A stretch of 64,000 bases of DNA from positions 122,518 through 186,517 of IMG/VR virus record IMGVR_UViG_3300026521_000471. One strand, written 5' to 3'. The notes under the pieces were generated by a model. It had not been told where the DNA came from. It did no database searches and saw only the letters and a program-made list of their open reading frames with translations. The DNA comes from a virus. This document shows positions 43,072-63,717 of this stretch, piece after piece (the stretch's first letter is position 1; each line of letters starts with the position of its first letter). The translations under genes and the position numbers were made by a program.

Positions 43072-44325
43072 ATGGCTATTTTACAGCTCCATTCTGATGA
43101 TCCAAATTTTGGATACATTATCAAAAAAAACCCAAATTCATCTATGCAAATAAGAAGTATACGTAAAGGTACTGCTTTTACATGGTATTCTCATAATGGT
43201 ACCGACTTTAATATTTATTTTAAAGATGCTGATAATGATGTATCGTTTGGATCGCAAGAATTCGATTATCTAAATATTTCTAAATATAATTCACCGATGT
43301 TTATTATCAATGCAATAAGTGAGTTTTTTTCAAGTACTGTTAGAGAAGAATCAGAATTAGATATAAAAAGTTCAAAATATTTTTATATTAACTTACTTGA
43401 AATCAAAAGAATAAAACAATTAATGGATTTTAAGAAATATTTCCCTGATTTTGAAATTGAAATTACCGAACAAGTTGGGAAAAATTATACTATTAAAGTA
43501 ATAACTGAAAATAGTTGGTTTATGTTATTAAATTATATTAATCTTATGATGATTTTTATTGCATTATCAAGTAACGACTACGTACATTTAGATAGTTCAA
43601 ATATTGAAAAATATCTAAATGCTATGAATCGATTGGATGCACCATTTTTTATACGTTATTTAGTAAGTAGAAATCTTATTAAAAGTAAAAACCAATTTAA
43701 AAAATATAAACAATTACTTGAAAAATCAAAAAGATATAATATCAATATGGCATATGGTAATACGGCTATGCAACGGAAAGACAAAATAGAACGTTTATTA
43801 TCATTTGATAAATCGATTCTTGATATTGGGTGTGGAGAAGGTTTTTATGCTATAGATTTTTCTAAAAAAATAGAAAAATATTCTTATAATGCCATTGACA
43901 TTAATCCTAATCTATTAGAGTCGATCAAGATAAAAGCTTCAAAAAAAGAAATTACAAATATTAATCTCTTTAATAGTCTAGAAGATTTTATAAAGATTTA
44001 CAATGATGAGTTAGTAGATATAATACTAACTGAAGTTATTGAACACATGCCAAAAGATGAATCAAAAAGATTAATAGAGACAGTATTGATGTCTATTAAT
44101 TTTAATACATTCATTATTACCGTACCAAATAAAGACTTTAATATTTTTTATGAATTAGGTGATGAAATGAGACATGATGATCATGACTGGGAACCTACAT
44201 TTGATGAATTTAAAAATTTTATAGCTAATTTTAATAATGATGGTTTATCTTTTGAATTTATAGAAATAGGTGATACTATCGATGGTATCTCTACAAGTAT
44301 CGGTTGTATAATTAAAAAGGTATAA
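43072..44325 (+). CDS. hen1: Hen1-like RNA 3'-terminal 2'-O-methyltransferase (bacterial Hen1 architecture: N-terminal domain plus C-terminal Mg-dependent methyltransferase)
   Basis: C-terminal domain: ILDIGCGEGFYAIDF (SAM motif I), LTEVIEHMPKDE (the Hen1 EVIEH metal motif), MRHDDHDWEPTFDEF (Hen1 HxDHxFEWTxxEF). The ~240-aa N-domain is consistent with the ligase-activating domain. Confidence 0.8.
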   Translation: MAILQLHSDDPNFGYIIKKNPNSSMQIRSIRKGTAFTWYSHNGTDFNIYFKDADNDVSFGSQEFDYLNISKYNSPMFIINAISEFFSSTVREESELDIKSSKYFYINLLEIKRIKQLMDFKKYFPDFEIEITEQVGKNYTIKVITENSWFMLLNYINLMMIFIALSSNDYVHLDSSNIEKYLNAMNRLDAPFFIRYLVSRNLIKSKNQFKKYKQLLEKSKRYNINMAYGNTAMQRKDKIERLLSFDKSILDIGCGEGFYAIDFSKKIEKYSYNAIDINPNLLESIKIKASKKEITNINLFNSLEDFIKIYNDELVDIILTEVIEHMPKDESKRLIETVLMSINFNTFIITVPNKDFNIFYELGDEMRHDDHDWEPTFDEFKNFIANFNNDGLSFEFIEIGDTIDGISTSIGCIIKKV

Positions 44326-46102: not shown

Positions 46103-48793
46103 ATGAATAAAATTAAAACACAAGTACATACTATAATAATGCTTATTGGACCTAGTGGTTCTGGTAAAACAACATTCGCTAATGAAATTCTAATACCCAC
46201 ATTACAAGAATATAAAGGTAGTGGAAATGACAATTTAAAAACAAATATACAATATATTAGTTCTGATGATATTAGAAAAGATATTTTAGGATATAATTAT
46301 AGTAAAATAGATGAAATTATGACTGAAAGTTCAACACAAGCATTTGAAATATTATTTACAAAATTAAGAGCTGTTACTAGTTATCCAATCAATGCTGAAT
46401 TTGTTATTTTAGATACAACTGGATTAAGTGAAAAATTTAGAAATGATGTTTTAGATATAGCAAAAGATAATAATTATAATGTCGATATTATAGTTTTCGA
46501 TTATAAGAATATTGATGAATATCAGAAAAATTTTTCTGATGAAGTTTATCAACAACCTAGTACTAATGGCAAAATTATTTCTAAGCATATAAAAAGATTA
46601 AAAACAGAAACATTAAAAACATTAAAAAAAGGTGTATATAAAAATATTCATAAAATTAAAAATAAAGATTTTCTTTTAGAAGTTGAACAGGAGAATCCAT
46701 ATGATTTAACACCTACTATGTTAAAACCTCTTTATAGTGTAGATGTATGGGATTGGAAAAAATATACTGATAGAATATTAAATAGTACTTATGATTGGAT
46801 TACTATTGGTGATGTTCATGGATGTATTCATGAATTAAAACAATTACTTGAAAAATATGGTTTTATAATTGAAGACAATGAAATCATAGATACAAACAAA
46901 ACAAAAAATATAGGATTGATTTTTGCAGGTGATTTAATTGATAAGTCGTCAGAAGAAGATTTAACTGAAACTATAAGATTTATACATAAAAATATGATAA
47001 AATTTCAAGATCGTTTTCAATTAATATTAGGTAATCATGAAGAGATGGTCTGGAAATGGATAACAAATCATAAAGATTTAGAAATTACTCCAGAACGATT
47101 GGATCAGAAAAAAAGATACTATAATACAGCAATTTTACTAGAGAAAAATGAAGAGTTAAAATCTATGTTTTTAGATATTTTTCATAATATGAAAGGTTGG
47201 GTTAAATTTATAGGATTAAACAAAAGAAGTTTTGTAGTTACACATGCACCATGTGAGGTTAAATATCTCGAAAAAATGGATCGTATTTCATTAAAACGTC
47301 AATATAAATGCGCTAGTAGAAGTAAAAACAAAGATAAGACTAATGATGAACTAACACCATATTTAAAAGAAGAAGCAGTTAATAACCATCCAGTTCACAT
47401 ATTTGGTCATATGGGACAATCATCTGTTAGATCTTTTAAAAATAAAGTTTGTATTGATACAGGCTGTGTATATGGTGGAAGATTAACTGGATACAGTATA
47501 GGATACGGTAAACCATTTATTCAAAGTGTAAAATCATTATCTCCTAAGAGTGCAAGAAACGACTTTGGAAATAATCTATTTGAAGATATAGGTAAAGCTA
47601 TAAAAGAAGTATCTATTGAAGATTTAAATCCATACAACCAAAAAAGATTAGATTATATAGTAAAAAATGGCATAGGATACATAGGAGGTACAATTTCACC
47701 TTCAAATAAAAACATCGAAAAAAATTCACTAGAATCTTTAGATAGTGGACTTAATTATTTCAAAGATAAAGTAGATAGTGTAGTTCTACAACCTAAATAT
47801 ATGGGGTCTAGAGCACAACTGTATCTCTTTAAAGATAATATTGAAAAATGCTATGCTACAAGTAGAAATGGATATAAAATTAGAGAGGACTTAACTGATT
47901 TATTCTCATCTAAATTAATAGAATACAAGCATATTTTTGATATGTATAATGCTGATGAGATAATTATAGATGGTGAATTATTACCATGGGCTCTTTTAGG
48001 AAAAGGTTTGATAGAAACACATTTTAAAACTGCGGATATAGCTATCCAAACAGAAATCGACTTTCTGGATGATAATGGGTTTGATAAGGCTTTTTTAAGT
48101 TTAAAGGATGAATTTAATGAATCAGAATTTTTAAAAGATAAAAATATTTTAGCTAAAAAAGAATTAGCTAAAAAATATGGTCACAAATATCACTCTTATA
48201 AAGATTTAAAATTTGAAATTGATAGATTCATACCTTTAAGTAAACACAAAAAAGCTTGGAAAATTTTCAATAAACAAATAACCCTTTATGGAGATGATAC
48301 AAATACAGATTTTAAAGGTTTTAGATTATTAAAAGTAATATCAAATAACAATATAATCGATTTGGATCTAACCCCTAGCGAACACTTTAAACTATTAAAT
48401 TCAGATGATATTCATATTGTTGATTTCAATGATAAAGACTATTTAGTTAAAGCTGAAAGATGGTATGATGATTTAGTGAGTAATCAAAATATGGAAGGTT
48501 GTGTAATAAAACCGGAAGTAAAGTTATTAGAATCTTGGATTGCTCCATATTTAAAAGTAAGAAATGAAGAATATCTTTCTATCATTTATGGGTATGATTA
48601 TAAATTCCCTGTCAAATTTAATAGATTATTAAATCAAAAAAATATTTCTAAAAAATTAAGACTCTCTATATCAGAGTATAAATTAGGAGAAGAAATGCTT
48701 AAAGCTCCTATGGGTAGTAAAGAACAAATACAGATTATAGCCAATCTATTATTTGAAAATGAAAAAGAAGAAAGCGTCGATCCAAGATTATAA
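46103..48793 (+). CDS. pnkp: bacterial-type polynucleotide kinase-phosphatase-ligase (Pnkp): P-loop 5'-kinase, metallophosphatase, and adenylyltransferase/ligase domains
   Basis: IMLIGPSGSGKTTFAN (kinase P-loop). ITIGDVHGC, IFAGDLIDK and LGNHEE (calcineurin-like phosphatase). C-terminal ...VVLQPKYMGSRAQLY (nucleotidyltransferase KxxG motif I). At 896 aa with this domain order it matches Clostridium-type Pnkp. Confidence 0.85.
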   Translation: MNKIKTQVHTIIMLIGPSGSGKTTFANEILIPTLQEYKGSGNDNLKTNIQYISSDDIRKDILGYNYSKIDEIMTESSTQAFEILFTKLRAVTSYPINAEFVILDTTGLSEKFRNDVLDIAKDNNYNVDIIVFDYKNIDEYQKNFSDEVYQQPSTNGKIISKHIKRLKTETLKTLKKGVYKNIHKIKNKDFLLEVEQENPYDLTPTMLKPLYSVDVWDWKKYTDRILNSTYDWITIGDVHGCIHELKQLLEKYGFIIEDNEIIDTNKTKNIGLIFAGDLIDKSSEEDLTETIRFIHKNMIKFQDRFQLILGNHEEMVWKWITNHKDLEITPERLDQKKRYYNTAILLEKNEELKSMFLDIFHNMKGWVKFIGLNKRSFVVTHAPCEVKYLEKMDRISLKRQYKCASRSKNKDKTNDELTPYLKEEAVNNHPVHIFGHMGQSSVRSFKNKVCIDTGCVYGGRLTGYSIGYGKPFIQSVKSLSPKSARNDFGNNLFEDIGKAIKEVSIEDLNPYNQKRLDYIVKNGIGYIGGTISPSNKNIEKNSLESLDSGLNYFKDKVDSVVLQPKYMGSRAQLYLFKDNIEKCYATSRNGYKIREDLTDLFSSKLIEYKHIFDMYNADEIIIDGELLPWALLGKGLIETHFKTADIAIQTEIDFLDDNGFDKAFLSLKDEFNESEFLKDKNILAKKELAKKYGHKYHSYKDLKFEIDRFIPLSKHKKAWKIFNKQITLYGDDTNTDFKGFRLLKVISNNNIIDLDLTPSEHFKLLNSDDIHIVDFNDKDYLVKAERWYDDLVSNQNMEGCVIKPEVKLLESWIAPYLKVRNEEYLSIIYGYDYKFPVKFNRLLNQKNISKKLRLSISEYKLGEEMLKAPMGSKEQIQIIANLLFENEKEESVDPRL

Positions 48794-49912: not shown

Positions 49913-50551
49913 ATGAAAAAAATACTTATAGTAGTAGACTACCAATTTGACTTTGCTAGCCCAACAGGGGCTCTATCAGTACCCAATGCTGATAAAATAG
50001 TTGATAACATCCAATCTTATATCAATGATAAATCGTATGAAAATATAATTTATACTTTTGATACTCATACATCTGATAAATATAATGGTTCTGATGAATC
50101 TAAAATTTTTCCTTCAATTCATTGTGAATTTGGAACAATCGGTTGGAATTTTTATAAAATTAAACCCAGATATAAAAATTGGGATAATTTTATTGCAAAT
50201 CGTGGAATCGATGAAGGTACAGTACCTTTTAACACCTTTATAGTTGAATCGGAAATGTTTTTTACAAAAGATGTTTTTGATATTTGGCAAGGAAATTCAA
50301 TCTTTAAATCTATTTTTACAAATACCTTTAAACCAAAGGACACAATTATAGACATTGTAGGTGTAGCTACAAATTACTGCGTATTTATGAATGTTATGGG
50401 TCTAGTAAAAAATGGTTATACAGTTAATGTTCTTTCAGATGCTGTTGAAGGGATTAAATCATTTCCAGATGGATCAATAGATGATAGTTTTCAAACAAAT
50501 ATCAATGTTATGAAAAATAAAGGTGTAACTTTTTCTGGAGACATAAAATGA
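49913..50551 (+). CDS. pncA: nicotinamidase PncA (isochorismatase/cysteine-hydrolase family)
   Basis: ILIVVDYQFDF (VDxQxDF), catalytic-triad context, and ...VGVATNYCVFMN (nucleophile Cys). Confidence 0.75.
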   Translation: MKKILIVVDYQFDFASPTGALSVPNADKIVDNIQSYINDKSYENIIYTFDTHTSDKYNGSDESKIFPSIHCEFGTIGWNFYKIKPRYKNWDNFIANRGIDEGTVPFNTFIVESEMFFTKDVFDIWQGNSIFKSIFTNTFKPKDTIIDIVGVATNYCVFMNVMGLVKNGYTVNVLSDAVEGIKSFPDGSIDDSFQTNINVMKNKGVTFSGDIK

Positions 50552-51444
50552 TTATGAAAGTAATAGAAAGTTCAGAAGAGAATGTTTGGAAATATATTTT
50601 TAATGATAATGAAATAGTTTTGGAAAGTGTATTATATAAATACGGTTCATTCGATAAAAGAACTGTTATTTGTTGTTCTGTACAAAGTGGTTGTCCGGTT
50701 GGATGTACATTTTGTGGAACAGGTGCAAATTTCTTAAAAAATATTTCATCAGATCAAATAGTTGAGCAAATAACAACTATTTTTAAAGATAAAAATATCG
50801 AGGATATAAACAGTAGATGTGAAAAGCTTCAAATAATGTTTATGAGTATGGGTGAACCATTTCTTAATTACAAAAATGTTAAAGAAGCAATAATTAAATT
50901 GAATAAATTATACCCTAATGCCGACTTATTAATATCTACTGTTGGTATTAATGATGATAAAATTTTTAAAGATTTTATTTCATTATCTAAAATGATTAAA
51001 AAAGTTGGTTTACAATTTAGTATTCATAAATCAAATGATACAGATAGAGATAAATTAATACCCTTTAAAAAGAAATATACACTTAGGGAAATCAGAGATA
51101 GAGGTACTATTTGGCATAAAGAAACAGGGAGACAAGTATATCTCAACTACTGTGTTGATGGTACAAATAATAGTCAAAATGATATTGAGAATCTTAAGAA
51201 TCTCTTTTCTCCAATTATTTTTAATATGACATTTAGTGTTATTTGTGAAGCAGATGAAACAATGAAAGATAGTTCATGTAGAAATTTGAATACGATTAGA
51301 GATTTTGAAAAATCTTTTATTGAAGAAGGGTATAATACCAGAATATTTGATCCTGCTGGACAGGACGATATTGGTGGAGGATGTGGCCAATTATGGTTCG
51401 TTCAAGATTATCTTAAAAATAAAAAAATGAAAGCAGAGGTATAA
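50548..51444 (+). CDS. radical-SAM RNA methyltransferase of the RlmN/Cfr family, lacking the N-terminal domain
   Basis: CCSVQSGCPVGCTFCGTG (CxxxCxxC), FMSMGEPFLN, and C-terminal GQDDIGGGCGQLWF (the second catalytic Cys motif DIDAACGQL of RlmN). Confidence 0.8.
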   Translation: MIMKVIESSEENVWKYIFNDNEIVLESVLYKYGSFDKRTVICCSVQSGCPVGCTFCGTGANFLKNISSDQIVEQITTIFKDKNIEDINSRCEKLQIMFMSMGEPFLNYKNVKEAIIKLNKLYPNADLLISTVGINDDKIFKDFISLSKMIKKVGLQFSIHKSNDTDRDKLIPFKKKYTLREIRDRGTIWHKETGRQVYLNYCVDGTNNSQNDIENLKNLFSPIIFNMTFSVICEADETMKDSSCRNLNTIRDFEKSFIEEGYNTRIFDPAGQDDIGGGCGQLWFVQDYLKNKKMKAEV

Positions 51445-51448
51445 AATT

Positions 51449-52402
51449 ATGGAAAAAATAGAAACACTAACCGATATGGTAGAAGTAATCAGAGAAATAA
51501 AAACACCGACAAGTCAAAAAGCTAATATGGTTGTAGGAAATATTAGAGCACAAATTAAAAATTACGTACAACGTAATAATCTTAAATCACTTGTAGTAGG
51601 TGTGAGTGGGGGTCTTGATTCAGCTGTTGTAGCGGCTCTTTGTCAAGAAGAATTTACAGGAGTACCTCTAATTGGTCTTTCTATTCCTATGAGTTCAACT
51701 AACGCTCACAAAGAACAGGCAGAATGGGTAGGTAATACCTTTTGTACGGCTTTTGAAGAATTCAACTATTGGGATGAAACTTTTCAGTACAATGAAGAAG
51801 AAGGTACTGATATGATGAGTGAAGTATTTAATACCGTTTCAGCAACAGATAAAGTTGCTGAAAAAGCAGGATTTAAAACGGAAGATTTTCCAAAAAATGT
51901 TCTTCAAGGTAATATTAAAGCGAGGCTTAGAATGATAACTCTTTATGACCTTGCAAGAAAAACAAACGGTATGGTTCTTTCAACAGATAACCTTTCTGAA
52001 TTTCAAATGGGATTTTGGACTATTTGTGGTGATGTAGGTGATTTTGGACCTATCCAAAATGTTGGTAAGGGGTTTGAGCTTCCAGCCATAGCAAGAGCTC
52101 TTGGAATAAGAGCAGATATTATCACTCAATCGCCTAGTGATGGACTAATGGTAACTGAAGAAAATACAGATGAGGCTCAACTTGGAGCTAATTATGAGGA
52201 AGTTGATACTATTATGAGTATTTATCTTGGCAATATCAATAAACCAAAAGAAATTATAGATAAACTTAAAAGTAACCTATTTAATATTATTAATGATAAA
52301 AAGAGTGCTAAGAAAATTTCAAATGTAATTACACGTTATGAAAATTCACACTTTAAACGTAATGGTACAATCAACCTTACAAGAGAACAGATCGGAATCT
52401 AA
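51449..52402 (+). CDS. nadE: NH3-dependent NAD+ synthetase NadE
   Basis: LVVGVSGGLDSAVVAALC (PP-loop), KARLRMITLYDLAR, VLSTDNLSEFQMGFWTICGDVGDFGPIQ and QSPSDGL...LGANYEEVD all align with E. coli NadE. Its length and motifs do not fit QueC. Confidence 0.8.
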   Translation: MEKIETLTDMVEVIREIKTPTSQKANMVVGNIRAQIKNYVQRNNLKSLVVGVSGGLDSAVVAALCQEEFTGVPLIGLSIPMSSTNAHKEQAEWVGNTFCTAFEEFNYWDETFQYNEEEGTDMMSEVFNTVSATDKVAEKAGFKTEDFPKNVLQGNIKARLRMITLYDLARKTNGMVLSTDNLSEFQMGFWTICGDVGDFGPIQNVGKGFELPAIARALGIRADIITQSPSDGLMVTEENTDEAQLGANYEEVDTIMSIYLGNINKPKEIIDKLKSNLFNIINDKKSAKKISNVITRYENSHFKRNGTINLTREQIGI

Positions 52403-53339: not shown

Positions 53340-53348
53340 AGGATAACT

Positions 53349-54488
53349 ATGAAAAAAAGTATGAGAGAAGAATCTTTAGGAACTAGACTTAAAGGTTATG
53401 AAAGAGAGTTTGAATCAGTAATCGATCCAAAGGATTTTATTATTTGTAGAATTGATGGACATAAATTTAGCAAATATACAAAAGGTATGAAAAAACCATT
53501 TGATAAAATGTTGTCAAATACAATGGAGGAAACTACTAAAGACCTTGTTGAAAAATTTGGAGCCGTAACGGGCTATACGCAATCTGATGAAATTTCATTG
53601 GTTTTTGTCCCTCAATTCAAAGAAAGATTAATACCTATTGAAACCAAAGAATTATTTGTTCTTAATGATGAAGAAGCAACCTATAAAGTTTATGACAAAG
53701 AATACAACTTGCTAGGTTCATTAGATATTAGTTATGAAGATATGGATGATGAATATTTCAGTATTAACTTTTGGGTAGTTTCTGATACTAATGATGAAAT
53801 TATCGATCAATGTTCTTGGCAAAATAGAAACTCTAAAACTGAGGCTAAAGCATTAGAAACGCTTTTAAAGTATATCATTAAGAAAGTTGAAATAACAAAT
53901 GAGCAAATTTTTGGAGGAAGAGTTCAGAAATTAACTTCTTTGATTGCGGCATATACTACTATGCAGTTTAATAAACACTTTTCTAAATTTTTAGAAAAAA
54001 CATACGAAGATTATGAAGAAAAATTAGAAAAGGGCGAAATCGATACGAATAGTTTAGAGGCCATGAAATACCTTAAAACAATGGATGAAAAAGTAGGTAA
54101 TGCTTGGTTTGATGCTAGAGTTTATGGCGTATCATCTAAAGAAGAAGCATTTAACAGTATTATGTGGCGAATTCGTGATGCCGAGAAGAACTCTAGATCA
54201 ATGTTTGCACAGACATACTGCTCTCATAAATCGCTATTAGGAAAAAATGGTCTTGAACAGGTTGAATACTGTAAAGAAACTACTGGTAAAGATTGGGAAG
54301 AAGTTGAAGATAAATACAAATATGGCATTTTAGTTAAAAAAGAAAAATATCTTAAACCTATTTCTGAAGGGACTATGGATTATGCTCAAAATGATTTTGT
54401 AGAAAGATCCAGAATTATTAGTTGGGCTGAAAAAATTACTACTTTCTCTGGTGAAAAAGTTGAAATGGTTGTTAGGAAATATAAATGA
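53349..54488 (+). CDS. Thg1-like protein (tRNA-His guanylyltransferase family 3'-5' nucleotidyltransferase)
   Basis: FIICRIDGHKFSKYTKGMKKPFDKMLSNTMEETTKDLVEKFGAVTGYTQSDEISLVF aligns with Thg1 (VVVRLDGRNFHRF...GQSDEYSFVF), including both metal-binding carboxylate motifs. Confidence 0.8.
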   Translation: MKKSMREESLGTRLKGYEREFESVIDPKDFIICRIDGHKFSKYTKGMKKPFDKMLSNTMEETTKDLVEKFGAVTGYTQSDEISLVFVPQFKERLIPIETKELFVLNDEEATYKVYDKEYNLLGSLDISYEDMDDEYFSINFWVVSDTNDEIIDQCSWQNRNSKTEAKALETLLKYIIKKVEITNEQIFGGRVQKLTSLIAAYTTMQFNKHFSKFLEKTYEDYEEKLEKGEIDTNSLEAMKYLKTMDEKVGNAWFDARVYGVSSKEEAFNSIMWRIRDAEKNSRSMFAQTYCSHKSLLGKNGLEQVEYCKETTGKDWEEVEDKYKYGILVKKEKYLKPISEGTMDYAQNDFVERSRIISWAEKITTFSGEKVEMVVRKYK

Positions 54489-54751
54489 TTTCTAATCCTC
54501 CAGAAGATTTAGTAGAGGTTGTGAAACTTCTACTAACAGATAATCTTAAAGATTTTAAACCTTTAGATGATTTTATTAAAACAGATGAAAATGATTTGAT
54601 AAAATATCATTTTAGTTTGGGTATGGAGTTAAGAAATCATTATAGTTTATGGACGAAAAGATTCGAAGATAAAAATGGCTTTGAAATTCATCCAGATGAC
54701 GTATCATTTGAATTTATAAAATATGCTCATACACAATTAAAAATTAATTAG
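54485..54751 (+). CDS. hypothetical protein
   Basis: ORF track. Confidence 0.35.
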   Translation: MISNPPEDLVEVVKLLLTDNLKDFKPLDDFIKTDENDLIKYHFSLGMELRNHYSLWTKRFEDKNGFEIHPDDVSFEFIKYAHTQLKIN

Positions 54752-54759
54752 GAAAATTT

Positions 54760-55188
54760 ATGAAACCTACGTCTATTGGAATTATTCCCTATCGGTTTTC
54801 TGAAAACGGGGTATCTATTCTTTTAATGCGGTCTTCTAAGAAAAATGATAGATTCGATTTTGTTAAAGGTAAGATAGAACCTTATGAAACTAGAGTAGAC
54901 TGTTGTTTACGAGAAGTTCAGGAAGAAATAGGTGTTTCACTTTCCAAAGAAGATTTAGACTTTTCTGTTAAGCAATACAATAAGAAGAAAAATATTGAAT
55001 TATTCTTTATTCATTGGGATAAATATTTGTATAAGCAATTTAAATTAGATGAACGAGAAGTTTTTGAACTAAAATGGTTTAATTTGAATGAAATACCTAC
55101 AATTTCTCAGAACCAACGTTTGATTATTACGAAAATAAATGAAAGATTTAACAAATTACATCAACTACTAAGGAGTAACTATGTTTGA
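54760..55188 (+). CDS. Nudix hydrolase
   Basis: Nudix box GKIEPYETRVDCCLREVQEEIGV. Confidence 0.6.
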   Translation: MKPTSIGIIPYRFSENGVSILLMRSSKKNDRFDFVKGKIEPYETRVDCCLREVQEEIGVSLSKEDLDFSVKQYNKKKNIELFFIHWDKYLYKQFKLDEREVFELKWFNLNEIPTISQNQRLIITKINERFNKLHQLLRSNYV

Positions 55189-55326: not shown

Positions 55327-55848
55327 ATGAACGCCTTGTTCTTAGATATTGATGGAGTTTTAAATAATTACCATCTTAAAGAACCATTTACTTTTCCAAA
55401 CGGTTATACACAGCAACCAGTTAAAGGCACTCAAAATAAATGGAATGGTTTAATGGGTATGGATTATGATAAAGTTAATTTATTAAATGAAATACTTGAA
55501 AGTAACGAGTGGAAAGTAATAATATCAAGCTCTTGGTATTATTCGGATAGTACTGTTAATGCGTTAAAACATTTTGGTTTTAAATATTCAGATAGAATTA
55601 TTGGTGGTACAAATAGAAAATCATATGGTAGAGGAAAACAAATCCTAGATGCTGTTGAAGATTTTAAAGTAACAGATTTTATTATTTTAGATGATGAACT
55701 ATTTGATATTACTGGAAACTCTGAATTTGTTAGTAATAATATGCGAGAAATATTTAGAGATAGAGTGTTTAAAACAAATCCATACATAGGTTTAACTGAA
55801 AAGACAGTCTCTAATATTTTAAAAAGATTAGACTATTTTATAATTTAA
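55327..55848 (+). CDS. HAD-like phosphatase
   Basis: LFLDIDGVLN (motif I) and FIILDDE (motif IV-like). Confidence 0.5.
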   Translation: MNALFLDIDGVLNNYHLKEPFTFPNGYTQQPVKGTQNKWNGLMGMDYDKVNLLNEILESNEWKVIISSSWYYSDSTVNALKHFGFKYSDRIIGGTNRKSYGRGKQILDAVEDFKVTDFIILDDELFDITGNSEFVSNNMREIFRDRVFKTNPYIGLTEKTVSNILKRLDYFII

Positions 55849-56145: not shown

Positions 56146-57297
56146 ATGCGAGTTGATAATATCTTAATAAAAACAGAGTATGGAGATATAGAAATCTCAG
56201 GAAGAGTAGATAGCGGTGAATTTATTCCAGATGATTTAGATATTTCAACGGAATTAGGTGAATTTTTAGGAAAATGGATTGAAGCTGGAAATTTATTTTT
56301 TTCAGATAATGAAATTGATATGGTCGGTCAAGATATTGATGATGATTTAATCGATGAATTAAAAAATTTCGTTACATTGAGTGATTTTTCAGATCCTATG
56401 AGAGCATTAGCTTTACATCAACATACAGGATACGATTTTACAAATATTGATGAAGATAGAAACCCATACACATTTACATCTGGAAGAGAAGAATATATGG
56501 TTTTGACCGATGATGAAGCTGATGAAATGGCTAAAGAACGGGTTGAAAATTTATTAGATGATGTAGGATTTGATGGATTTAGTGATTGGGCTAAAGATCA
56601 TGCATTAGATAATTTTATTGATACTGATTGGTTTGACGATGCAAAAATTGAAATGAGTATGAGCTATGCTGAAGATATTAAACACGAGGGTGCAAATTCG
56701 GATGAATACATTAATAGACTACATGAAGAAATGGTAGAATTAGGTGTTCTTTTTGAACCGGAATGGCCTGAAGAACCAGATGAATCAGATTATACCTATG
56801 AAAGAGAGGAATTTGATAGTTCAGATTTTTATGATAATGAACCAGTAGAAGATGATTATGAAACTGAAGAAGAATGGGAAGAAGCACATAGTAAATGGGA
56901 AGATGATTTATCAAATGCTGAAAAAGAATGGGAAGAAGAACAAGACCGTTTAGAAGAAGAAGCTCAAGAAGAATATGACGATGCGATTGAAGCTTGGGAA
57001 CGTGAAAAAGAAGAATATGAATCAGATTTAGAAAATGATATAGATAATAATATTGAAGAGTTTGCTGAAAAACGTGTAGAAGATGAAGACGGCATCGAAT
57101 ATTGGAAAAATAATATTGGTGATATTTCCGATGTAGTAAAAGAACAAGGTTTATTAGACGAAGACGCTTTTATAGAATGGATTGTTGAAACTGATGGTAG
57201 AGGTACTAATATTGCAACTTATGATGAGGCGGAGTACGAAGAAACTGTAACCTTAAATGGTGAAACTGAAGATTTTTATATTTACAGAACCGAATAA
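56146..57297 (+). CDS. highly acidic (D/E-rich) hypothetical protein
   Basis: ORF track; low-complexity acidic C-terminal half. Confidence 0.45.
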   Translation: MRVDNILIKTEYGDIEISGRVDSGEFIPDDLDISTELGEFLGKWIEAGNLFFSDNEIDMVGQDIDDDLIDELKNFVTLSDFSDPMRALALHQHTGYDFTNIDEDRNPYTFTSGREEYMVLTDDEADEMAKERVENLLDDVGFDGFSDWAKDHALDNFIDTDWFDDAKIEMSMSYAEDIKHEGANSDEYINRLHEEMVELGVLFEPEWPEEPDESDYTYEREEFDSSDFYDNEPVEDDYETEEEWEEAHSKWEDDLSNAEKEWEEEQDRLEEEAQEEYDDAIEAWEREKEEYESDLENDIDNNIEEFAEKRVEDEDGIEYWKNNIGDISDVVKEQGLLDEDAFIEWIVETDGRGTNIATYDEAEYEETVTLNGETEDFYIYRTE

Positions 57298-57367: not shown

Positions 57368-58771
57368 ATGGCTTTATTAACTTACGATGAAGTATTAGAA
57401 ATCACAAAAATAAATGAAACTTTTAAAATGAAACACCAAAAAATAGGTAACACAGAAATTGCAATGTGTACTTATTTTTTAGCAAATGCAGGTGATTTTT
57501 TTGATGCAAAATTAGATGGCTCTATGGTTAGAGCCACAGAATTAAGAGGTATAACATTTGTAAAAGCTCCAAATTCAGACTGGAAAACATATTTGTTTAT
57601 CGATAAATTTTTTAATATCGGTCAAACAAATGGAACTAATATAACAAATATGGAACTTTCTATCAATGACTCAACTGAAATTTGTAATATTAATAAACTT
57701 TTTATCGATGAAAATGAGAAAACATATCGTGCAATAGATTTAAAGTTAAATATGATTGTTGCTGAATTTGATAGAAATACTGAAACTCATGGGGATTTTT
57801 TTCAAATTTTATCACTAGATAAAAAAGTTTTACCTACATTGAAACCTGAAAATTCTTGGATGTATGAGGATGTAAAAGATTTAGAAATTGTAAGAATTGC
57901 AAATAAAGAAGATGGATCCGCAATAAGATTTCTTTTAATTGAAGGAAAATTAGTGGCTAAAACAAAATTTTCTTTTGAATCAGAACAATGCAAATTAGCT
58001 ATGGAAATAGTTGAAAAAGATCCTAAACTTAAAGCATTTATTTTAACAACTTTAGAGTTTGGATATGCAGCAATTTTTGAAATAGTTTCACCATTTAATA
58101 AAATCGTTTTAACATATCCAGAAACATCTCTTAGATTGTTGCAACTAAGAGATGAAAATAATGATGGGTTATATCTAAATATATATGATAATACATTAGT
58201 AAAAGCATTTAATATCTTGACTGCCAATCAAGAACCTTTATACACACTTGATGAGTTACTTAAATTAAAAGAAACCGTTGAAGATAAAGAAGGTTGGGTA
58301 ATTACATTTGAAAATGGAAAAATGGCAAAGGTAAAAACTGATTGGTATATGTCACTTCATGGTATTTTAACTGATGGGTTAAAAGAACATAAAATAATTG
58401 AAAAGGTTTTAGACGAAACGATTGATGATACTATAGCAATGATACCAGAAGAAAATATTGAAGAACGAGATTTTATTGATGGTATCTCTGAAATTATAAT
58501 TAATCATGTAAATCATTTAGTGTCAGATGCAGAAGCTAAATTTAAAAATTCATGGAATGGAAATAAAAAAGAGTTAGCACTAAAATTTAAGGATGATAAA
58601 CGTGCTTTTCCATATATAATGAGTTTTGCAAATGGAAAAAATATTGAAGAAATTGAAAAACAAGTTATAGATAGAGTTAAATTTGAATGTAGACGTTTAG
58701 AAATGGCTAAACAATACCTTAAAAATTTAGGTTTTGACAAAGAACTCGAAATAAAAATTGAGGATGATTAA
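57368..58771 (+). CDS. rnl1: RNA ligase 1 (T4 Rnl1 / gene 63-like tRNA repair ligase)
   Basis: ELRGITFVKAPNSDWKTYLFIDKFFN, ANKEDGSAIRF (motif I KxDGS), EFGYAAIFEIVSPFNKIVLTYPE and KEGWVITFENGKMAKVKTDWYMSLHG align block by block with T4 Rnl1. Confidence 0.85.
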   Translation: MALLTYDEVLEITKINETFKMKHQKIGNTEIAMCTYFLANAGDFFDAKLDGSMVRATELRGITFVKAPNSDWKTYLFIDKFFNIGQTNGTNITNMELSINDSTEICNINKLFIDENEKTYRAIDLKLNMIVAEFDRNTETHGDFFQILSLDKKVLPTLKPENSWMYEDVKDLEIVRIANKEDGSAIRFLLIEGKLVAKTKFSFESEQCKLAMEIVEKDPKLKAFILTTLEFGYAAIFEIVSPFNKIVLTYPETSLRLLQLRDENNDGLYLNIYDNTLVKAFNILTANQEPLYTLDELLKLKETVEDKEGWVITFENGKMAKVKTDWYMSLHGILTDGLKEHKIIEKVLDETIDDTIAMIPEENIEERDFIDGISEIIINHVNHLVSDAEAKFKNSWNGNKKELALKFKDDKRAFPYIMSFANGKNIEEIEKQVIDRVKFECRRLEMAKQYLKNLGFDKELEIKIEDD

Positions 58772-58773
58772 TC

Positions 58774-58941
58774 ATGAAATACGGTTTTAGTTTATTTGAA
58801 TTAATTATTGTAGTTGTAATATTGGGAATTCTAGCAGCAGTTGCTATTCCTAGATTATCAAATTCTTCATCAAATAATGATAAAATTTCATACAAAAAAA
58901 TAATTTTTACTAATGGTGATGGTGGATCCGCCGAGAATTGA
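58774..58941 (+). CDS. short type IV pilin/pseudopilin-like ORF (55 aa): prepilin leader and N-terminal hydrophobic helix only
   Basis: MKYG|FSLFELIIVVVILGILAAVAIP is a canonical class III signal peptide with Glu at +5. The 3' end overlaps the tmRNA 3' terminus. Not in ORF track because it is under 60 aa. Confidence 0.35.
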   Translation: MKYGFSLFELIIVVVILGILAAVAIPRLSNSSSNNDKISYKKIIFTNGDGGSAEN

Positions 58942-59301
58942 ACTCGGGTCTGCCACTACTTCCATTTAAATCTCATTTACAAGTTTAGTTTGATTTTTAA
59001 TACTTTAATACTTAGATAACCAAACAAATCGGTATTAAAGGCACTTGATATAATTTTCGTCTAAAGGTATCAAGTTTAACTTTAGCTTATCTATTTTTTA
59101 TTATACACTCTGTATTTATTAGTAAATAGACAACTAATAAACTGAGTGATTCCGGGCTCCCAGAGGGAGGATTAAGCAGCTACTCTCGCAGTCTGTGGAA
59201 TATAAAGTTTTGTGTTTGCATTTAAGCTTTTTTGATGATTAAGTCATCACTCTACTTGCAATTTAAATTTCTTATAGCAACATCGATCCCAATTCGGACC
59301 C
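58920..59301 (-). ncRNA. ssrA: tmRNA (SsrA), 382 nt
   Basis: Minus-strand 5' end GGGUCCGAAUUGGGAUCGAUG resembles the tmRNA 5' end GGGGCUGAUUCUGGAUUCGAC. The 3' end is ...CCGAGUUCAAUUCUCGGCGGAUCCACCA (T-arm plus acceptor plus CCA). The acceptor stem pairs with a G3:U70 wobble (alanine identity). An internal tag ORF (59219..59172) reads GCA AAC ACA AAA CUU UAU AUU CCA CAG ACU GCG AGA GUA GCU GCU UAA, giving ANTKLYIPQTARVAA, followed by a CUCCC/GGGAG helix. Confidence 0.8.
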
Positions 59302-59310
59302 ATAAAAAAT

Positions 59311-59337
59311 ATCAGTATATAGAAATTATATACTGAT
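59311..59337. other. perfect 11-bp-stem hairpin (ATCAGTATATA-gaaat-TATATACTGAT) just upstream of the tmRNA 5' end
   Basis: Read from the sequence; flanked by a T-run on the minus strand. Confidence 0.5.
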
Positions 59338-59575
59338 ATGATAATATCCTTTATTTTATACCCAAGGTAACAAAGAACCCTTTACATAAAAAAACACATA
59401 CGATATTAATTTATCTTTTTACTTGTAAGTAAATTAGAGCGTTATCAATTAAGATAAATACGTTCCATAAGAGTTATTTTCTCTAGGTCAATCTCTAAGA
59501 TAAAATTTTAAAGAGTAATTTAAATCTCTTATATATTTATTTTACAATTTTTAATTTAATTATAAGGTATTTTTT

Positions 59576-59584
59576 GATATAATA
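59576..59584 (+). promoter_or_regulatory. extended -10 promoter TGATATAAT upstream of rsr
   Basis: TTTTTTGATATAATATATTAC, 36 nt before ATG 59620, which carries a TAAGGAG ribosome-binding site. Confidence 0.45.
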
Positions 59585-59619
59585 TATTACAAATTTTAAA
59601 TAATTAAGGAGATTGTCCT

Positions 59620-61119
59620 ATGGCAAAATTTAACCAAGGTACTAAAAGTATCCCAAATAGTAAAAATATGGCTGGAGGGGTATCATATGATCGCCCAATA
59701 AAAAAAGAGGTTGCGACTGTTGTTTTAAACTCTATGCTTAATGGTGATTCATATTATGAAAAAGAAGGTGAACGTTTAAAACGAATTGAAACTCTTATCA
59801 CTACATCAAAGTCTGATGCTGAGTTTGTAGCAAAAGCTATGGTGTTTACTAGAACAAATGGTCGTCTTAGAAGTATTTCACATTTCATGGCAAATATTTT
59901 AGCAGAAAATGTAAAAGGTAGTGACTTTTTACGTTCAGCATTAACAAAAGCTATTGTAAGACCGGATGATATGACAGAAATGTTATCACTTTGGGATACA
60001 AGAAATCCAAATAAAATGGTTCCGAATTCACTTAGAAGAGCCTTTAAGAAAGCTTTGGAAACTAAATTTGATGAATATCAATTTCGTAAATATGCTCAAC
60101 CAAAATCAAAAGTGAAACTAAAAGATGTCGTTAAACTAGCACATCCTTCACCTAAGAATTTTGATGATGAAACTATTTTTAAAAGAGTTATCGAAGATCA
60201 ATTAAAGGCTGTTGAAACAGCACAAACTATCAATGCATCTAAAACTGGTGAAGATCGAGTTGAAGCATATATGAAAGAAATTAAATCTGGTAAAATGGGT
60301 TATATGGCAGCATTAAAAAATATTAGAACATTGATGGAAAATAATATTTCAGAAGATGACTTAAAACAATGGTCTAATTTTATAACTGATCCTAAAAGGG
60401 TACAAAAATCAATGGTACTTCCATTTAGATTTGTTGATGCATGGAATGCTGTAAAAGATTTACCTATTAATGAATTTAAGAAAAATATTGTTAAGAAAGC
60501 ACTTGAGAGAGCTTTTGCCCTATCAGCTGGAAATACAAATATTGCTTCTGATGATGAAAAAGTGGCTATTTTACTTGATGAATCAGGTTCTATGGGCGGA
60601 TATTCAAATAATGACCGTAAAACACCATTTTATATTGGTAAAGTATTATCAGCTGCGATGAAAGTAGGTATGGATGATGATAAGTGTCTGTTTTATACTT
60701 GGGCAGATACATGTACAAGAAGAGATATAAAAGGTTTGTCATCTTTTGATTTTATCAATAATTTAAATACTAGAGGTGGAGGTACTGATGTATCAGCTCC
60801 TTTAAAAGAGTTAATTAAAACAAAAACATTTGTTGATAAAATTATAATCTTTAGTGATATGCAGATGTATGGTGGATGGGGAAATATTGGAGATCAACTC
60901 AAAAATTATTTAAAAACATATCGTAAAGAAGTCAATCCAAATGTAAAAGTATTATTTTGGAATTTAGAAGGATATGGTGGTGGTTCACCATTAGATATTG
61001 AAAAAACATCTGATATTTTTGAAGTAGCTGGTTTTTCAGATAGCATGCTTCAAATTATACCTAAATTATGGAGTGATAAAGATTTTTTAATTAAAGAGAT
61101 TGAAGCTATATCACTTTAA
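59620..61119 (+). CDS. rsr: Ro60-related protein (Rsr): TROVE domain plus vWA domain
   Basis: N-terminal NMAGGVSYDRPIKKEVATVVLNSMLNGDSYYEKEGERL (TROVE), KLKDVVKLAHPSP (the Ro60 RLSHLKP region), vWA MIDAS VAILLDESGSMGG and TRGGGTD, IIFSDMQ, and C-terminal VAGFSDSMLQII (Ro60 CGFDTGALDVI). Confidence 0.8.
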   Translation: MAKFNQGTKSIPNSKNMAGGVSYDRPIKKEVATVVLNSMLNGDSYYEKEGERLKRIETLITTSKSDAEFVAKAMVFTRTNGRLRSISHFMANILAENVKGSDFLRSALTKAIVRPDDMTEMLSLWDTRNPNKMVPNSLRRAFKKALETKFDEYQFRKYAQPKSKVKLKDVVKLAHPSPKNFDDETIFKRVIEDQLKAVETAQTINASKTGEDRVEAYMKEIKSGKMGYMAALKNIRTLMENNISEDDLKQWSNFITDPKRVQKSMVLPFRFVDAWNAVKDLPINEFKKNIVKKALERAFALSAGNTNIASDDEKVAILLDESGSMGGYSNNDRKTPFYIGKVLSAAMKVGMDDDKCLFYTWADTCTRRDIKGLSSFDFINNLNTRGGGTDVSAPLKELIKTKTFVDKIIIFSDMQMYGGWGNIGDQLKNYLKTYRKEVNPNVKVLFWNLEGYGGGSPLDIEKTSDIFEVAGFSDSMLQIIPKLWSDKDFLIKEIEAISL

Positions 61120-61139
61120 TATTAGATAGGGAAACCTAT

Positions 61140-61970
61140 CTAATCAATGGGTGACAAATCAACTAATTCTTGATTTCCTTCTTCATCAATTTCAATCTCA
61201 AATTCTCTACCTTCTAAATTTTCTTTAGCATACTCATCACTATAATAATAGTCCCACGAAGTTTGTAAAGAGTTTTGTAATGTATCATAATGTTCTTCTA
61301 AAAGATTATTAACTTCTTCAACATAAAGCTCTATTTCATTTTCTATTTGACTTTCTATTTCAGCTCGTATTTCAGAAGTTAAATCATAAAATTCATTCAA
61401 ATCCATATTATAAACATCTTGAAAAAACATTTTTGATGCTTTAATGCCATCTTTAATACTATTCAATGAGTCTTTATATTCCGGTTCATAACCTAATTCA
61501 TTTAACCATTTTTCAATTGACTGTTCAACTTCAAAAACTATTTCGATTTGTTCTCCATCCTCTAATGGATCTAAAAAAATCCTTGATTCGATTTCACTAT
61601 CTATAACATCAGTATCGATATAATAATCTTCAGTTTCTAATTCATAATTTTGAAAACTATATGGAAGATCATAAACAAATGATTCTTTTTCAAATTCATC
61701 CAAACGAGATGACTTAATTTCTTTAATAGATTTATGACCATCATCGATTGTACCTCTATATTCTAATTCATTTCTATAAAGGTCGAATGTAAAACTATCT
61801 TCATCTATATCTATCCCAAATTCAGTTTTCATAGTATTGACAAAATCATCAAAAATCCACTCATACCAATCTTCAGGAACTAAAAATTCATCTTCCTGAA
61901 AATTAACAATTATTTCTTCTTTTAATTTTTGAGGTAAATCCTCAAATTTTACAATTTCAGTTTTAAACAT
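61140..61970 (-). CDS. hypothetical acidic protein
   Basis: ORF track. Confidence 0.45.
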   Translation of the reverse strand: MFKTEIVKFEDLPQKLKEEIIVNFQEDEFLVPEDWYEWIFDDFVNTMKTEFGIDIDEDSFTFDLYRNELEYRGTIDDGHKSIKEIKSSRLDEFEKESFVYDLPYSFQNYELETEDYYIDTDVIDSEIESRIFLDPLEDGEQIEIVFEVEQSIEKWLNELGYEPEYKDSLNSIKDGIKASKMFFQDVYNMDLNEFYDLTSEIRAEIESQIENEIELYVEEVNNLLEEHYDTLQNSLQTSWDYYYSDEYAKENLEGREFEIEIDEEGNQELVDLSPID

Positions 61971-62015
61971 AATATCTCCAATTAAGTTTTTATTATGTTT
62001 ATTTATACCTTATTT

Positions 62016-62291
62016 CTAATCATTACGGATGATACCAAATATTTCATCCATTTCAATAATTAATAATTTTTCTTTATCTAATTCAATTTCAGTACCAGAA
62101 AATTTTCCAAAAACAACTGTCGTACCAATATCTACACCGAAATCTTCTTTAGTATCATCGTTACATGCTACAATTTTTCCAAAAGATGGAGTTTCTTTTG
62201 ATGAATCAGGTATAATAATACCACTTGCTGTTGTTTTCTGAGCTTCCTCTACTTTTACCGCTACTCTAGTTCCTAATGGTTCAAAATTCAT
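62016..62291 (-). CDS. groES: co-chaperonin GroES / T4 gp31-like (Hsp10)
   Basis: MNFEPLGTRVAVKVEEAQKTTASGIIIPDSSKETPSFGKIVACNDD...GTTVVFGKFSGTEIELDKEKLLIIEMDEI matches the GroES mobile loop and beta-barrel signature. Confidence 0.8.
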   Translation of the reverse strand: MNFEPLGTRVAVKVEEAQKTTASGIIIPDSSKETPSFGKIVACNDDTKEDFGVDIGTTVVFGKFSGTEIELDKEKLLIIEMDEIFGIIRND

Positions 62292-62315
62292 TTTAATTCC
62301 TTATTTTTTATTTTA

Positions 62316-62606
62316 TTATACAAATTTTTCAGGGTATTTTTCTAACATTTTAGTAAACATTTTATGAAGATCATTAATATTTACTTTAAACTGCTCTTCT
62401 ATAACCTTATTAATACTTAATATAGTTTTTAACATGGCTTCATCTTCTGATTTTTCTAATAAATGTTTAGATTTTCTTTTTGTATTTCCTCGACCAACAT
62501 CAATAATACAAAACTTATTTGTAATCCTTAAAATTTTTCCAGTAGAAATTTTTCCAGACCACTCATCTTGATACCAAACTTGCATACCTATTTCAAAATC
62601 TTTCAT
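62316..62606 (-). CDS. hypothetical protein
   Basis: ORF track. Confidence 0.4.
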   Translation of the reverse strand: MKDFEIGMQVWYQDEWSGKISTGKILRITNKFCIIDVGRGNTKRKSKHLLEKSEDEAMLKTILSINKVIEEQFKVNINDLHKMFTKMLEKYPEKFV

Positions 62607-62643
62607 TTAAAACCTTATTAAAAAACTTATATTATATATATTA

Positions 62644-63717
62644 TTATACAATGAATGTAGCAATAAATGCCCATATCAATAATAAAATCTGCCAACCAAT
62701 TATAGCTTCAAAATAACGACGTATTGGAGTACCAAAATACCCACTACCAATAGATAAACATTTATGCATCGGTGATATATTATAGGCAAAAAATTCAAGA
62801 ACTAAAAACCATACTAAATATTGTACACCATAAATGGTTGTTAATAATGCTACAATTCCTGCAAACTTTCCACTACTACCCATTAACCAGCTCGAAATAA
62901 ATGCGAAGCTACTTATCGCTATTAATCCAGACATAGTACTAATATCAAATATATTTTTATGACTATTAATAAATTCTATAATTTCTGTATTGTGACTTTT
63001 AAAAAATACTGATAACATTAGAATTACACTCAATAATAAAACTAACCACCAGTTTACATACCCAAATAACTCTTTAATATTATATGATTTTGTTAGTATG
63101 ATATAATAAATTGTAAGAATACCAAATATTATGGCTCCATTAAAACCGAATGCTAATAATCCAACACCTACAATCAAAGGTATTGCACCAGTTATGAAAC
63201 GTTTAATATCATATTTATCAAAAATTGACGCATCTAATATTATATCACTTTCGTCAAATTTCCAAAATATATACCATACGATATATAAGAAAGTGATTAA
63301 AATTAATGGCCACACATACCCTATAAATGCTCCCCAACTTAATCCTAAAGCTGCCATCGGTAAAATTACTGTTTTCTCTAAAGGAGACCATAGATAATAA
63401 TGATGTGTTGATAAATAATCTATAATACCAAATTTAGATCTAGATTTCCTACATTTTCTTTCGCCTTGATTACAATTATCCTTACTGCAACATGGGGCTA
63501 AATTTGATAATATACCTGCAGAAACAGTCACTCTACCAGGTATCGGCAATATACCACCGATAAATGATATTAAAGCAATTACACCCCTTTTACTTGGAAT
63601 TTTTTCAGATATATACTTAAATACATCCACCATCAAATTATGTGTTTTCATAATTCCTGAACTTATCATTACACCGATAAGAAAAATTAAATATGTTTGT
63701 ACTAATAAATATGACAT
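62644..63717 (-). CDS. polytopic integral membrane protein (about 9-10 transmembrane helices)
   Basis: ORF track; hydrophobic helices throughout; ribosome-binding site AAAGGAGGAA upstream. Confidence 0.5.
   Translation of the reverse strand: MSYLLVQTYLIFLIGVMISSGIMKTHNLMVDVFKYISEKIPSKRGVIALISFIGGILPIPGRVTVSAGILSNLAPCCSKDNCNQGERKCRKSRSKFGIIDYLSTHHYYLWSPLEKTVILPMAALGLSWGAFIGYVWPLILITFLYIVWYIFWKFDESDIILDASIFDKYDIKRFITGAIPLIVGVGLLAFGFNGAIIFGILTIYYIILTKSYNIKELFGYVNWWLVLLLSVILMLSVFFKSHNTEIIEFINSHKNIFDISTMSGLIAISSFAFISSWLMGSSGKFAGIVALLTTIYGVQYLVWFLVLEFFAYNISPMHKCLSIGSGYFGTPIRRYFEAIIGWQILLLIWAFIATFIV

Follow-up and report, generated by a model that had tools for sequence, protein, structure and literature searches.

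The question raised by this locus is whether the 379-aa product of the gene at positions 53349..54488 is a genuine Thg1-like protein (TLP) and, if so, what its unusual length may be for. The gene was read as an open reading frame in the window, i.e. the whole 64,000-nucleotide stretch of DNA that was analysed; all coordinates refer to this window and to the + strand, unless otherwise stated. To our knowledge, Thg1 and TLPs are the only polymerases that make RNA in the 3'-5' direction, and all their characterised members are compact (about 240-280 aa), their substrate choice being set by oligomerisation and by one flexible hairpin.

The open reading frame is preceded by a Shine-Dalgarno sequence, AGGA (53340..53343), separated from the ATG by a 5-nt spacer, and its stop codon overlaps the start codon of the next gene (ATGA). 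The protein contains both motifs from which the initial annotation had recognised a Thg1/TLP enzyme (RIDGHKF at aa 34-40, TQSDEISLVF at aa 77-86), and its profile and sequence matches indicate that they are not there by chance. The search against the Pfam Thg1 model (PF04446), which had been proposed as a check, gave 94.9 bits as compared to a cutoff of 29.2 (E=4.8e-27), and PHROG 4717 ('tRNA-His guanylyltransferase') matched with E=1.4e-55. When the single sequence was searched against PDB sequences, the best solved relative was the TLP of Bacillus thuringiensis (BtTLP; PDB 4KGK/4KGM), with E=1.5e-22 for 4KGK; with a profile built on 120 relatives (hmmsearch), the match rose to E=1.5e-42. BtTLP is the closest solved relative by sequence, with 37% identity. 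Similarity to the TLP of Methanosarcina acetivorans (MaTLP; 5AXK-5AXN) and to Candida albicans Thg1 (3WBZ/3WC2), neither of which has a domain inserted in the palm, was detectable only in the N-terminal palm. No matching model was found in NCBIfam, and megablast of 4 kb around the gene against deposited phages gave no match. The protein has the Thg1 fold, with polymerase-like palm and fingers, and shows every sequence and fold feature of the TLP clade that was tested. Judged by its sequence, it is a genuine member of the Thg1-like 3'-5' RNA polymerase family.

The active-site residues of BtTLP were mapped onto the query with MAFFT --add and with an hmmsearch profile alignment, and their conservation was evaluated over 120 relatives. 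In the profile alignment, the RiDGhkF and qSDEitL blocks of the profile fall on RIDGAHF and QSDEISI of BtTLP. Misalignment of the catalytic carboxylates had been named as grounds for rejecting the assignment; these residues align with those of BtTLP and are invariant among the 120 relatives. The first metal-binding carboxylate, D36 (codon 53454..53456; BtTLP D30, hTHG1 D29), is conserved in 120/120 sequences, and the second and third, D80 and E81 (codons 53586..53591; BtTLP D75/E76, hTHG1 D76/E77), are family-invariant. Overall, BtTLP E12/R28/D30/K43/D75/E76/K99/R131/R147 correspond to E18/R34/D36/K49/D80/E81/K194/R257/R274 of the query. All these positions are invariant or near-invariant across the relatives; at the position of K49, lysine is found in 101/120 sequences and arginine in 17/120. 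In the structure of BtTLP (PMC3701042), the role of conserved carboxylate belongs to D30, D75 and E76. K43 brings the activating ATP into position, the incoming NTP is handled by R28, R131 and R147, and the arginines are held by E12. M285 of the query is the methionine typical of TLPs (BtTLP M158), in place of the asparagine of eukaryotic Thg1 (N161), and the alignment shows that RDAEKNSRSMF (KNSRSM) replaces the DxHINNLYN (HINNLYN) motif of Thg1.

Thg1 and TLPs are dimers of dimers, in which the active site is completed by the partner subunit. In BtTLP, both K99' and R16' come from the partner: the former contacts the nucleotide in the partner's nucleotidyl-transfer site and the latter touches the gamma-phosphate of the partner's NTP (PMC3701042). 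The counterpart of K99' in the query is K194 (codon 53928..53930), which is located 10 residues past the larger of the two insertions described below and is conserved in 120/120 sequences. This conservation is consistent with a functional dimer. The position of R16', on the other hand, is occupied by glutamate (E22 in the query) in 119/120 members of the clade, and therefore nucleotide handling in the whole clade may differ from that of BtTLP.

At the C-terminus, the structural model contains a beta-hairpin (aa 327-359; 54327..54425) with strands at 327-337 and 350-359 and a loop of low confidence (pLDDT 63 in the block 341-350); its R353 is invariant in the alignment of the relatives. In MaTLP, a flexible C-terminal hairpin (R198-R215, including R215) measures the elbow of the tRNA; one tRNA is bound per dimer and the reading of the elbow makes the extension end at the right length (PMC4820378). 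The hairpin of the query, with R353, is a candidate counterpart of the MaTLP elbow hairpin, as judged from the model. When a tRNA is truncated at its 5' end, TLPs restore it by 3'-5' addition templated by Watson-Crick pairing, after a first step in which the 5'-monophosphate is activated with ATP or GTP (PMC3061083, PMC4820378). Since all catalytic residues are kept and a C-terminal hairpin with R353 is predicted, the same chemistry as in other TLPs would be expected. Thus, the protein is expected to be a catalytically competent TLP, which would act on tRNAs or tRNA-like RNAs that are damaged during infection.

With respect to BtTLP (245 aa), the query is 134 aa longer. The initial annotation had described a large insertion, in a protein about 100 aa longer than typical TLPs; the extra length is real, but it is distributed mainly over two insertions, of which only the first is specific to a subfamily. 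The net gain with respect to BtTLP is about 91 residues at aa 89-184 (insert 1; 53613..53900) and about 31 residues at aa 215-250 (insert 2; 53991..54098). Insert 1 follows the strand carrying D80/E81 (palm strand beta3) and precedes helix alpha2, where the link is about 9 residues long in BtTLP and about 100 in the query. It is an acidic alpha/beta domain with beta-alpha-beta-beta-beta-beta-alpha-beta order. Insert 2, defined by alignment and model, consists of an extension of alpha2 followed by a returning helix (192-227 and 236-248 in the model), so that the link between alpha2 and beta4 counts 38 residues as compared to about 7 in BtTLP. The insert-2 segment is 14-42 residues long in all 120 relatives, with no distinction between long and short forms. 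The insert-1 segment is instead bimodal among these 120 closest relatives: 87 sequences have 12-32 residues there, the other 33 have 84-114, and none is of intermediate length. The query exceeds its closest relatives of about 290 aa by about 85-90 aa, all of which derive from insert 1. Because insert 2 is common to the whole clade, the subfamily of about 370 aa is defined by insert 1 only.

Insert 1 was modelled with high confidence within the full protein (block pLDDT 84-97). When the segment aa 84-192 was folded alone, using a 27-sequence alignment, the same succession of strands and helices was obtained (pLDDT 84.7, pTM 0.70), which suggests that insert 1 behaves as an autonomous domain. 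A profile of the insert only, run against 1.84 billion representative proteins, gave seven matches, five of which are long-form TLPs carrying the segment at the same position. The non-TLP matches, P0122 and P0123, were discarded, being tandem-repeat proteins whose scores are summed over many weak stretches. No relative by fold or sequence was found in the PDB, a Foldseek search of the BFVD viral predicted structures gave no relative (best hit E 0.04, TM 0.37), nothing was found in PHROGs, and the only Pfam hit, Imm42, was sub-threshold (14.7 bits vs. 27.2) and was considered noise. An origin by internal duplication of the palm was rejected (hhalign probability 0.2%), as was an intein or homing-endonuclease origin, since neither such domains nor splice-junction residues are present. 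Insert 1 is therefore a domain with no recognisable fold and no detectable relative in the databases searched.

The sequence of insert 1 is poorly conserved, with no invariant residues of its own and no conserved basic or aromatic residues. In the comparison with the 86%-identical orthologue of locus L089, a pair whose dS of about 0.63 is unsaturated, dN/dS was 0.16 for insert 1, 0.26 for insert 2 and 0.076 for the core. Insert 1 is thus under purifying selection, and its base composition is unremarkable (GC3 0.20 vs. 0.22). Its net charge is negative in each of the 33 long members, averaging -10.8 (from -18 to -4), and the pI is 4.2-5.0 in the 27 members for which it was computed; relatives with a short loop at this site have a neutral to basic segment there. 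A net charge of -10 per 96 residues corresponds to about the 12th percentile of 96-residue windows of this proteome. After this control, we no longer considered acidity in itself a strong signal; what is more notable is its consistency across members.

The comparison of long and short forms gives indications on how insert 1 was acquired. The shortest relatives read ...PSFKDKDGGITNNQ... at this site and have retained the sequences that border the domain in the long form (PQFKE... on one side, ...EITNEQ on the other); in the model, strands at 90-96 and 176-184 border the insert. The domain therefore appears to have been grafted on the tip of a small hairpin that already existed in the clade. Short-form orthologues (e.g. 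P0022, P0020 and P0026; about 290-318 aa) are 58-65% identical to the query in the core and share with it insert 2, the C-terminus and the flanks PQFKE... and ...ITNNQ, but carry a hairpin or loop of 12-32 residues instead of the domain of about 95 residues. Loops of 15, 19 and 28 residues are also found at the insert-1 site in relatives. In a neighbour-joining tree built on 192 core columns, which is of low resolution, the long form is not monophyletic: about 22 long-form sequences make up a main cluster, 7 form another, and several stand alone, with short forms interspersed. Together with the shared flanks, this tree points to clean in-frame gains or losses. P0022, a short form that is 61% identical to the query, sits in the same genomic island, with isochorismatase, NadE, TLP, NUDIX and TROVE genes as in the query's island. 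This makes the long and short forms orthologues and means that the basic role of the enzyme does not need insert 1.

The long form was seen only in metagenome assemblies and in one 496-kb NCBI contig. A TLP is present in 162 deposited phage genomes, in which all matches cover less than 80% of the query, being split into two pieces that together span about 210-245 aa, and none contains insert 1. In IMG/VR, a scan by exact peptides with the single TLP protein found no relative, whereas an alignment-based scan gave at least 596 TLP loci; the best 80 of these include no long form, the closest spanning about 285 aa. Two loci with apparently long matches (L031 and L032) turned out to contain two tandem paralogues and not an interrupted gene.

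The gene is embedded in an island rich in RNA-repair functions. Upstream, there are genes for the RNA 3'-terminal 2'-O-methyltransferase Hen1 (43072..44325; Hen1_N 1.5e-64, methyltransferase domains, TIGR04074 3.9e-18), the polynucleotide kinase-phosphatase-ligase Pnkp (46103..48793; AAA_33, PNKP_ligase 3.4e-31, TIGR04075 6.5e-58), a nicotinamidase-like protein (49913-50551), an RlmN/Cfr-like radical SAM protein (50548-51444) and NAD synthase, NadE (51449-52402). Downstream, a DUF6794 gene (54485..54751; Pfam DUF6794 2.3e-08), whose start overlaps the TLP stop codon, is followed by a NUDIX hydrolase (54760..55188; Pfam NUDIX 7e-16), a phosphatase-like protein of the HAD_SAK_2 type (55327..55848; Pfam PF18143 2.1e-18), HAD_SAK_2 being the HAD domain that occurs in RNA repair proteins of the 'Swiss Army Knife' kind, a 383-aa ORF (56146-57297) and a T4 Rnl1-type RNA ligase (57368..58771; Pfam RNA_lig_T4_1, phrog_562 4.9e-50, TIGR02308 3e-27). 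A full-length tmRNA gene with encoded CCA lies on the - strand (58920..59301; ARAGORN, Rfam RF00023 115.5 bits vs. 47), and beyond it, on the + strand, a Ro60/TROVE and vWA RNA-binding protein is encoded (59620..61119; Pfam TROVE 5.9e-16, phrog_850 1.7e-35). No Y RNA was found near the Ro60 gene by Rfam at E<=1.

The Hen1, Pnkp and Rnl1 neighbours pointed out previously are therefore real. For the radical SAM protein the earlier reading holds in part: the best match is RlmN (TIGR00048, 1e-35), but its 123 bits are far under the 290-bit equivalog cutoff, so that the protein can only be called RlmN-like. The statement that the phage has enzymes for both tRNA ends was right as to the presence of repair enzymes and loose in its wording, since the breaks that Pnkp/Hen1 and Rnl1 heal and seal are internal ones, e.g. 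cuts in the anticodon loop, and no CCA-adding enzyme was identified among the window proteins scanned.

Locus L089 is collinear with the window, and the order of the island is largely or partly kept in L083, L001, L084 and L088 and in the short-form locus L085. The long-form loci L082 and L087 lie outside the repair island. In related loci, the tmRNA and the Ro60 gene are conserved near the TLP gene. By tblastn, NUDIX directly follows TLP in both long- and short-form loci (L001, L083, L085, L005 and L011), and this adjacency is the most general linkage of the island. DUF6794 adjoins TLP also in L001, L083 and L089; we considered it as a partner specific to the insert, but it is adjacent only in the closest long-form loci, where this cannot be separated from simple synteny. 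In some short-form loci DUF6794, which is itself acidic, is found 6-9 kb from TLP.

The window has a GC content of about 27%, with nearly all genes on one strand, and among its genes are those for a T4-type topoisomerase II (phrog_551, 2e-116), PhoH and helicases, along with PHROGs found only in phages. For the topoisomerase, the nearest cultured relatives belong to phages of 346-490 kb (Atu_ph07, Phosso and the RaK2 group), with about 34% identity. No phage structural gene was identified in the 64-kb window; from its gene content, on which the phage assignment rests, the window is probably a piece of the genome of an uncultivated huge phage. RNA-repair and NAD arsenals have been described in jumbo phages (PMC7824862), where Thg1 and ROT/TROVE proteins occur sporadically. 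Annotated phage TLPs (PHROG 4717), such as those of Bacillus phage Goe8, Serratia phage BF, Caulobacter phage CcrSC and the Erwinia jumbo phages, belong to the family of the query and have the same presumed RNA-repair role in reviews on jumbo phages, but lack insert 1. What was already known is therefore the existence of phage TLPs, annotated in hundreds of genomes, and their phage context; what is new is the accessory domain. No solved TLP and no deposited phage TLP has this inserted domain, for which no relative was detected. In the literature searched, we found no paper on a characterised phage TLP or on a TLP with an inserted domain.

The explanation that we consider rather probable is that the protein is a competent TLP working in a phage repair island, with insert 1 serving as an accessory gate or docking site. 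The enzyme, to which we attribute a putative tRNA 5'-repair activity by analogy with its relatives, would activate the RNA 5' end or use a 5'-triphosphate, and would then extend the RNA in the 3'-5' direction with the 3' strand of the acceptor stem as template, so that 5'-truncated tRNAs or tRNA-like RNAs would be restored. The island as a whole, with its RNA-repair and NAD-salvage functions, would counter host nucleases that attack the translation apparatus. As K194, the counterpart of BtTLP K99', starts alpha2 only 10 residues after insert 1, the insert probably lies beside the dimer interface and the path of RNA entry. In the literature text searched, we found no description of where the beta3-alpha2 loop lies with respect to the subunit interfaces. 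Insert 1 would be accessory and not catalytic: it may restrict or gate the RNA ends that reach the active site, or dock a partner protein. Being acidic, it is unlikely to be an RNA clamp, and an access gate or a docking surface is more plausible; our best guess is thus a substrate-access gate or partner dock near the dimer interface. Several observations go against this proposal: insert 1 lacks invariant residues and is lost in close orthologues that keep the genomic context, its acidity reaches only about the 12th percentile of the proteome, the position of BtTLP R16' is a glutamate in nearly the whole clade, and the long forms of L082 and L087 are found outside the repair island.

A more specific version, which we think unlikely, would make the acidic insert a purpose-built regulatory or docking module of a repair assembly, or a lid mimicking nucleic acid. 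As a docking module, it would tether the TLP to, e.g., Ro60, Pnkp/Hen1, Rnl1 or a tmRNA/tRNA-like RNP; as a lid, it would hold the reverse polymerase away from intact RNAs, giving way once a partner or a damaged 5' end pushes it aside. It is similarly improbable, in our opinion, that insert 1 is an additional RNA-binding or specificity domain contacting the tRNA body (elbow or anticodon) or a tRNA-like RNA, by which the TLP would be retargeted to particular substrates, for instance the phage's own tmRNA. The insertion point does adjoin the elements that build the partner's active site, and the phage tmRNA and the Ro60 gene are conserved nearby; however, acidity in all 33 long members is unfavourable for contacts with the RNA backbone, the insert is unlike any known RNA-binding fold and has no conserved basic or aromatic residues, and the predicted C-terminal hairpin with its invariant R353 is still present and could bind the elbow.

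Some of the features that count against the gate or dock could be read as signs that insert 1 is a tolerated neutral decoration, i.e. an indel at a permissive hairpin tip, perhaps the remnant of an old mobile element. The absence of invariant residues, the patchy distribution on the core tree with apparently clean losses, and the orthologues without insert in the same island would all fit, and the varying loop lengths among relatives (15, 19 and 28 residues) make the site an indel hot-spot. Nevertheless, a dN/dS of 0.16 is far below neutrality, the length is held at 84-114 residues despite identities down to about 10-20%, the fold is confidently predicted as autonomous, every member keeps its acidity, and there is neither a nuclease or intein signature nor a composition anomaly, so that we ascribe little likelihood to this reading. 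Even less credible appears the hypothesis that the enzyme does not repair tRNA at all and uses the Thg1 palm for a different nucleotidyl transfer, e.g. to modify or cap the 5' ends of other RNAs or to produce a nucleotide signal; the insert would then be a regulatory sensor. The residues tied to activation and templated transfer in BtTLP are conserved, the predicted C-terminal hairpin and its conserved arginine are kept, the closest solved relative at 37% identity is the tRNA-repairing BtTLP, and the neighbours are classic RNA-repair enzymes.

A palm insert for which matched orthologues lacking it are available offers a ready-made experiment on how substrates gain access to a reverse polymerase. 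Thg1/TLP enzymes are under development as tools for the engineering of RNA 5' ends (PMC11404450). If the insert were indeed a dedicated module or lid, it would represent a new protein fold and the first case known of a 3'-5' polymerase under the control of an accessory domain. As to the biology of huge phages, an island with Hen1/Pnkp, Rnl1, TLP, NUDIX, HAD, tmRNA and Ro60 adds to the picture of their RNA-repair arsenals.

Downstream of the gene for the Thg1-like protein (TLP), a NUDIX hydrolase gene (54760-55188, +) was found, which was also seen after the TLP gene in two loci whose TLP carries insert 1 (long forms L001 and L083), in the short-form locus L085 and in the further loci L005 and L011. 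The NUDIX gene lies directly 3' of the TLP gene in relatives both with and without the insert, and this retention in both forms suggests that TLP and the NUDIX hydrolase represent a functional pair. For example, the hydrolase might process a 5'-end pyrophosphate or cap, with 3'-5' addition by TLP taking place afterwards. A DUF6794 gene (54485-54751, +) is translationally coupled to the TLP gene by an ATGA overlap. Its position next to the TLP gene is the same in L001, L083 and in a third long-form locus, L089, and in some short-form IMG/VR loci (L022, L023, L044) it is located 6-9 kb from the TLP gene.

The gene encoding the Rnl1 ligase and that encoding the Ro60/TROVE protein with a vWA domain (59620-61119, +) flank a full-length tmRNA gene (58920-59301, -), which matched Rfam RF00023 with 115.5 bits as compared to a gathering score of 47. 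The CCA end is encoded in the gene, and the tag peptide is ANTKLYIPQTARVAA. The corresponding spot in L001, L085 and L089 is a gap without genes. When the region around the Ro60 gene (58700-62700) was searched with Rfam at E ≤ 1, no Y RNA or YrlA-like RNA was detected, and the tmRNA was the sole tRNA-like RNA found beside this gene.

The radical SAM protein (50548-51444, +) is closest to RlmN/Cfr (TIGR00048, 1e-35). Its match does not start until position 73 of the profile, with a score far under the equivalog cutoff, and the protein may be an RNA methyltransferase that is truncated or has diverged. L001 carries a second radical SAM gene. The DnaB-like helicase ORF (26613-28034, +; 473 aa) gave Hint/intein-splicing matches at its C-terminal end (aa 382-469) and seems to terminate within an intein, which could reflect an intein that is split or degenerate; alternatively, the helicase itself could be split. 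Two neighbouring paralogous genes (4151-5482, +, E 8e-52; 5495-6805, +, E 1.6e-36) both match phrog_10773, a PHROG without known function. This apparent phage genome also contains a gene for c-di-GMP turnover with a sensor domain (dCache-GGDEF-EAL, 29334-31511, +), and two PAS/GGDEF/EAL genes are found in the same island on the related contig L084 (905-4658).

On some IMG/VR phage contigs, two tandem TLP paralogues are present about 1.2 kb apart (L031, 1158-3012; L032, 10001-11855); the first impression of a single interrupted gene was rejected. In the TLP from Bacillus thuringiensis (BtTLP), R16' from the partner subunit touches the gamma-phosphate of the incoming NTP, whereas the equivalent residue in the phage clade is a glutamate (E22 in the window, codon 53412-53414). 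This glutamate is found in 119 of the 120 clade members, in both long and short forms. Phage TLPs of this clade may therefore differ from the solved enzymes in nucleotide handling.
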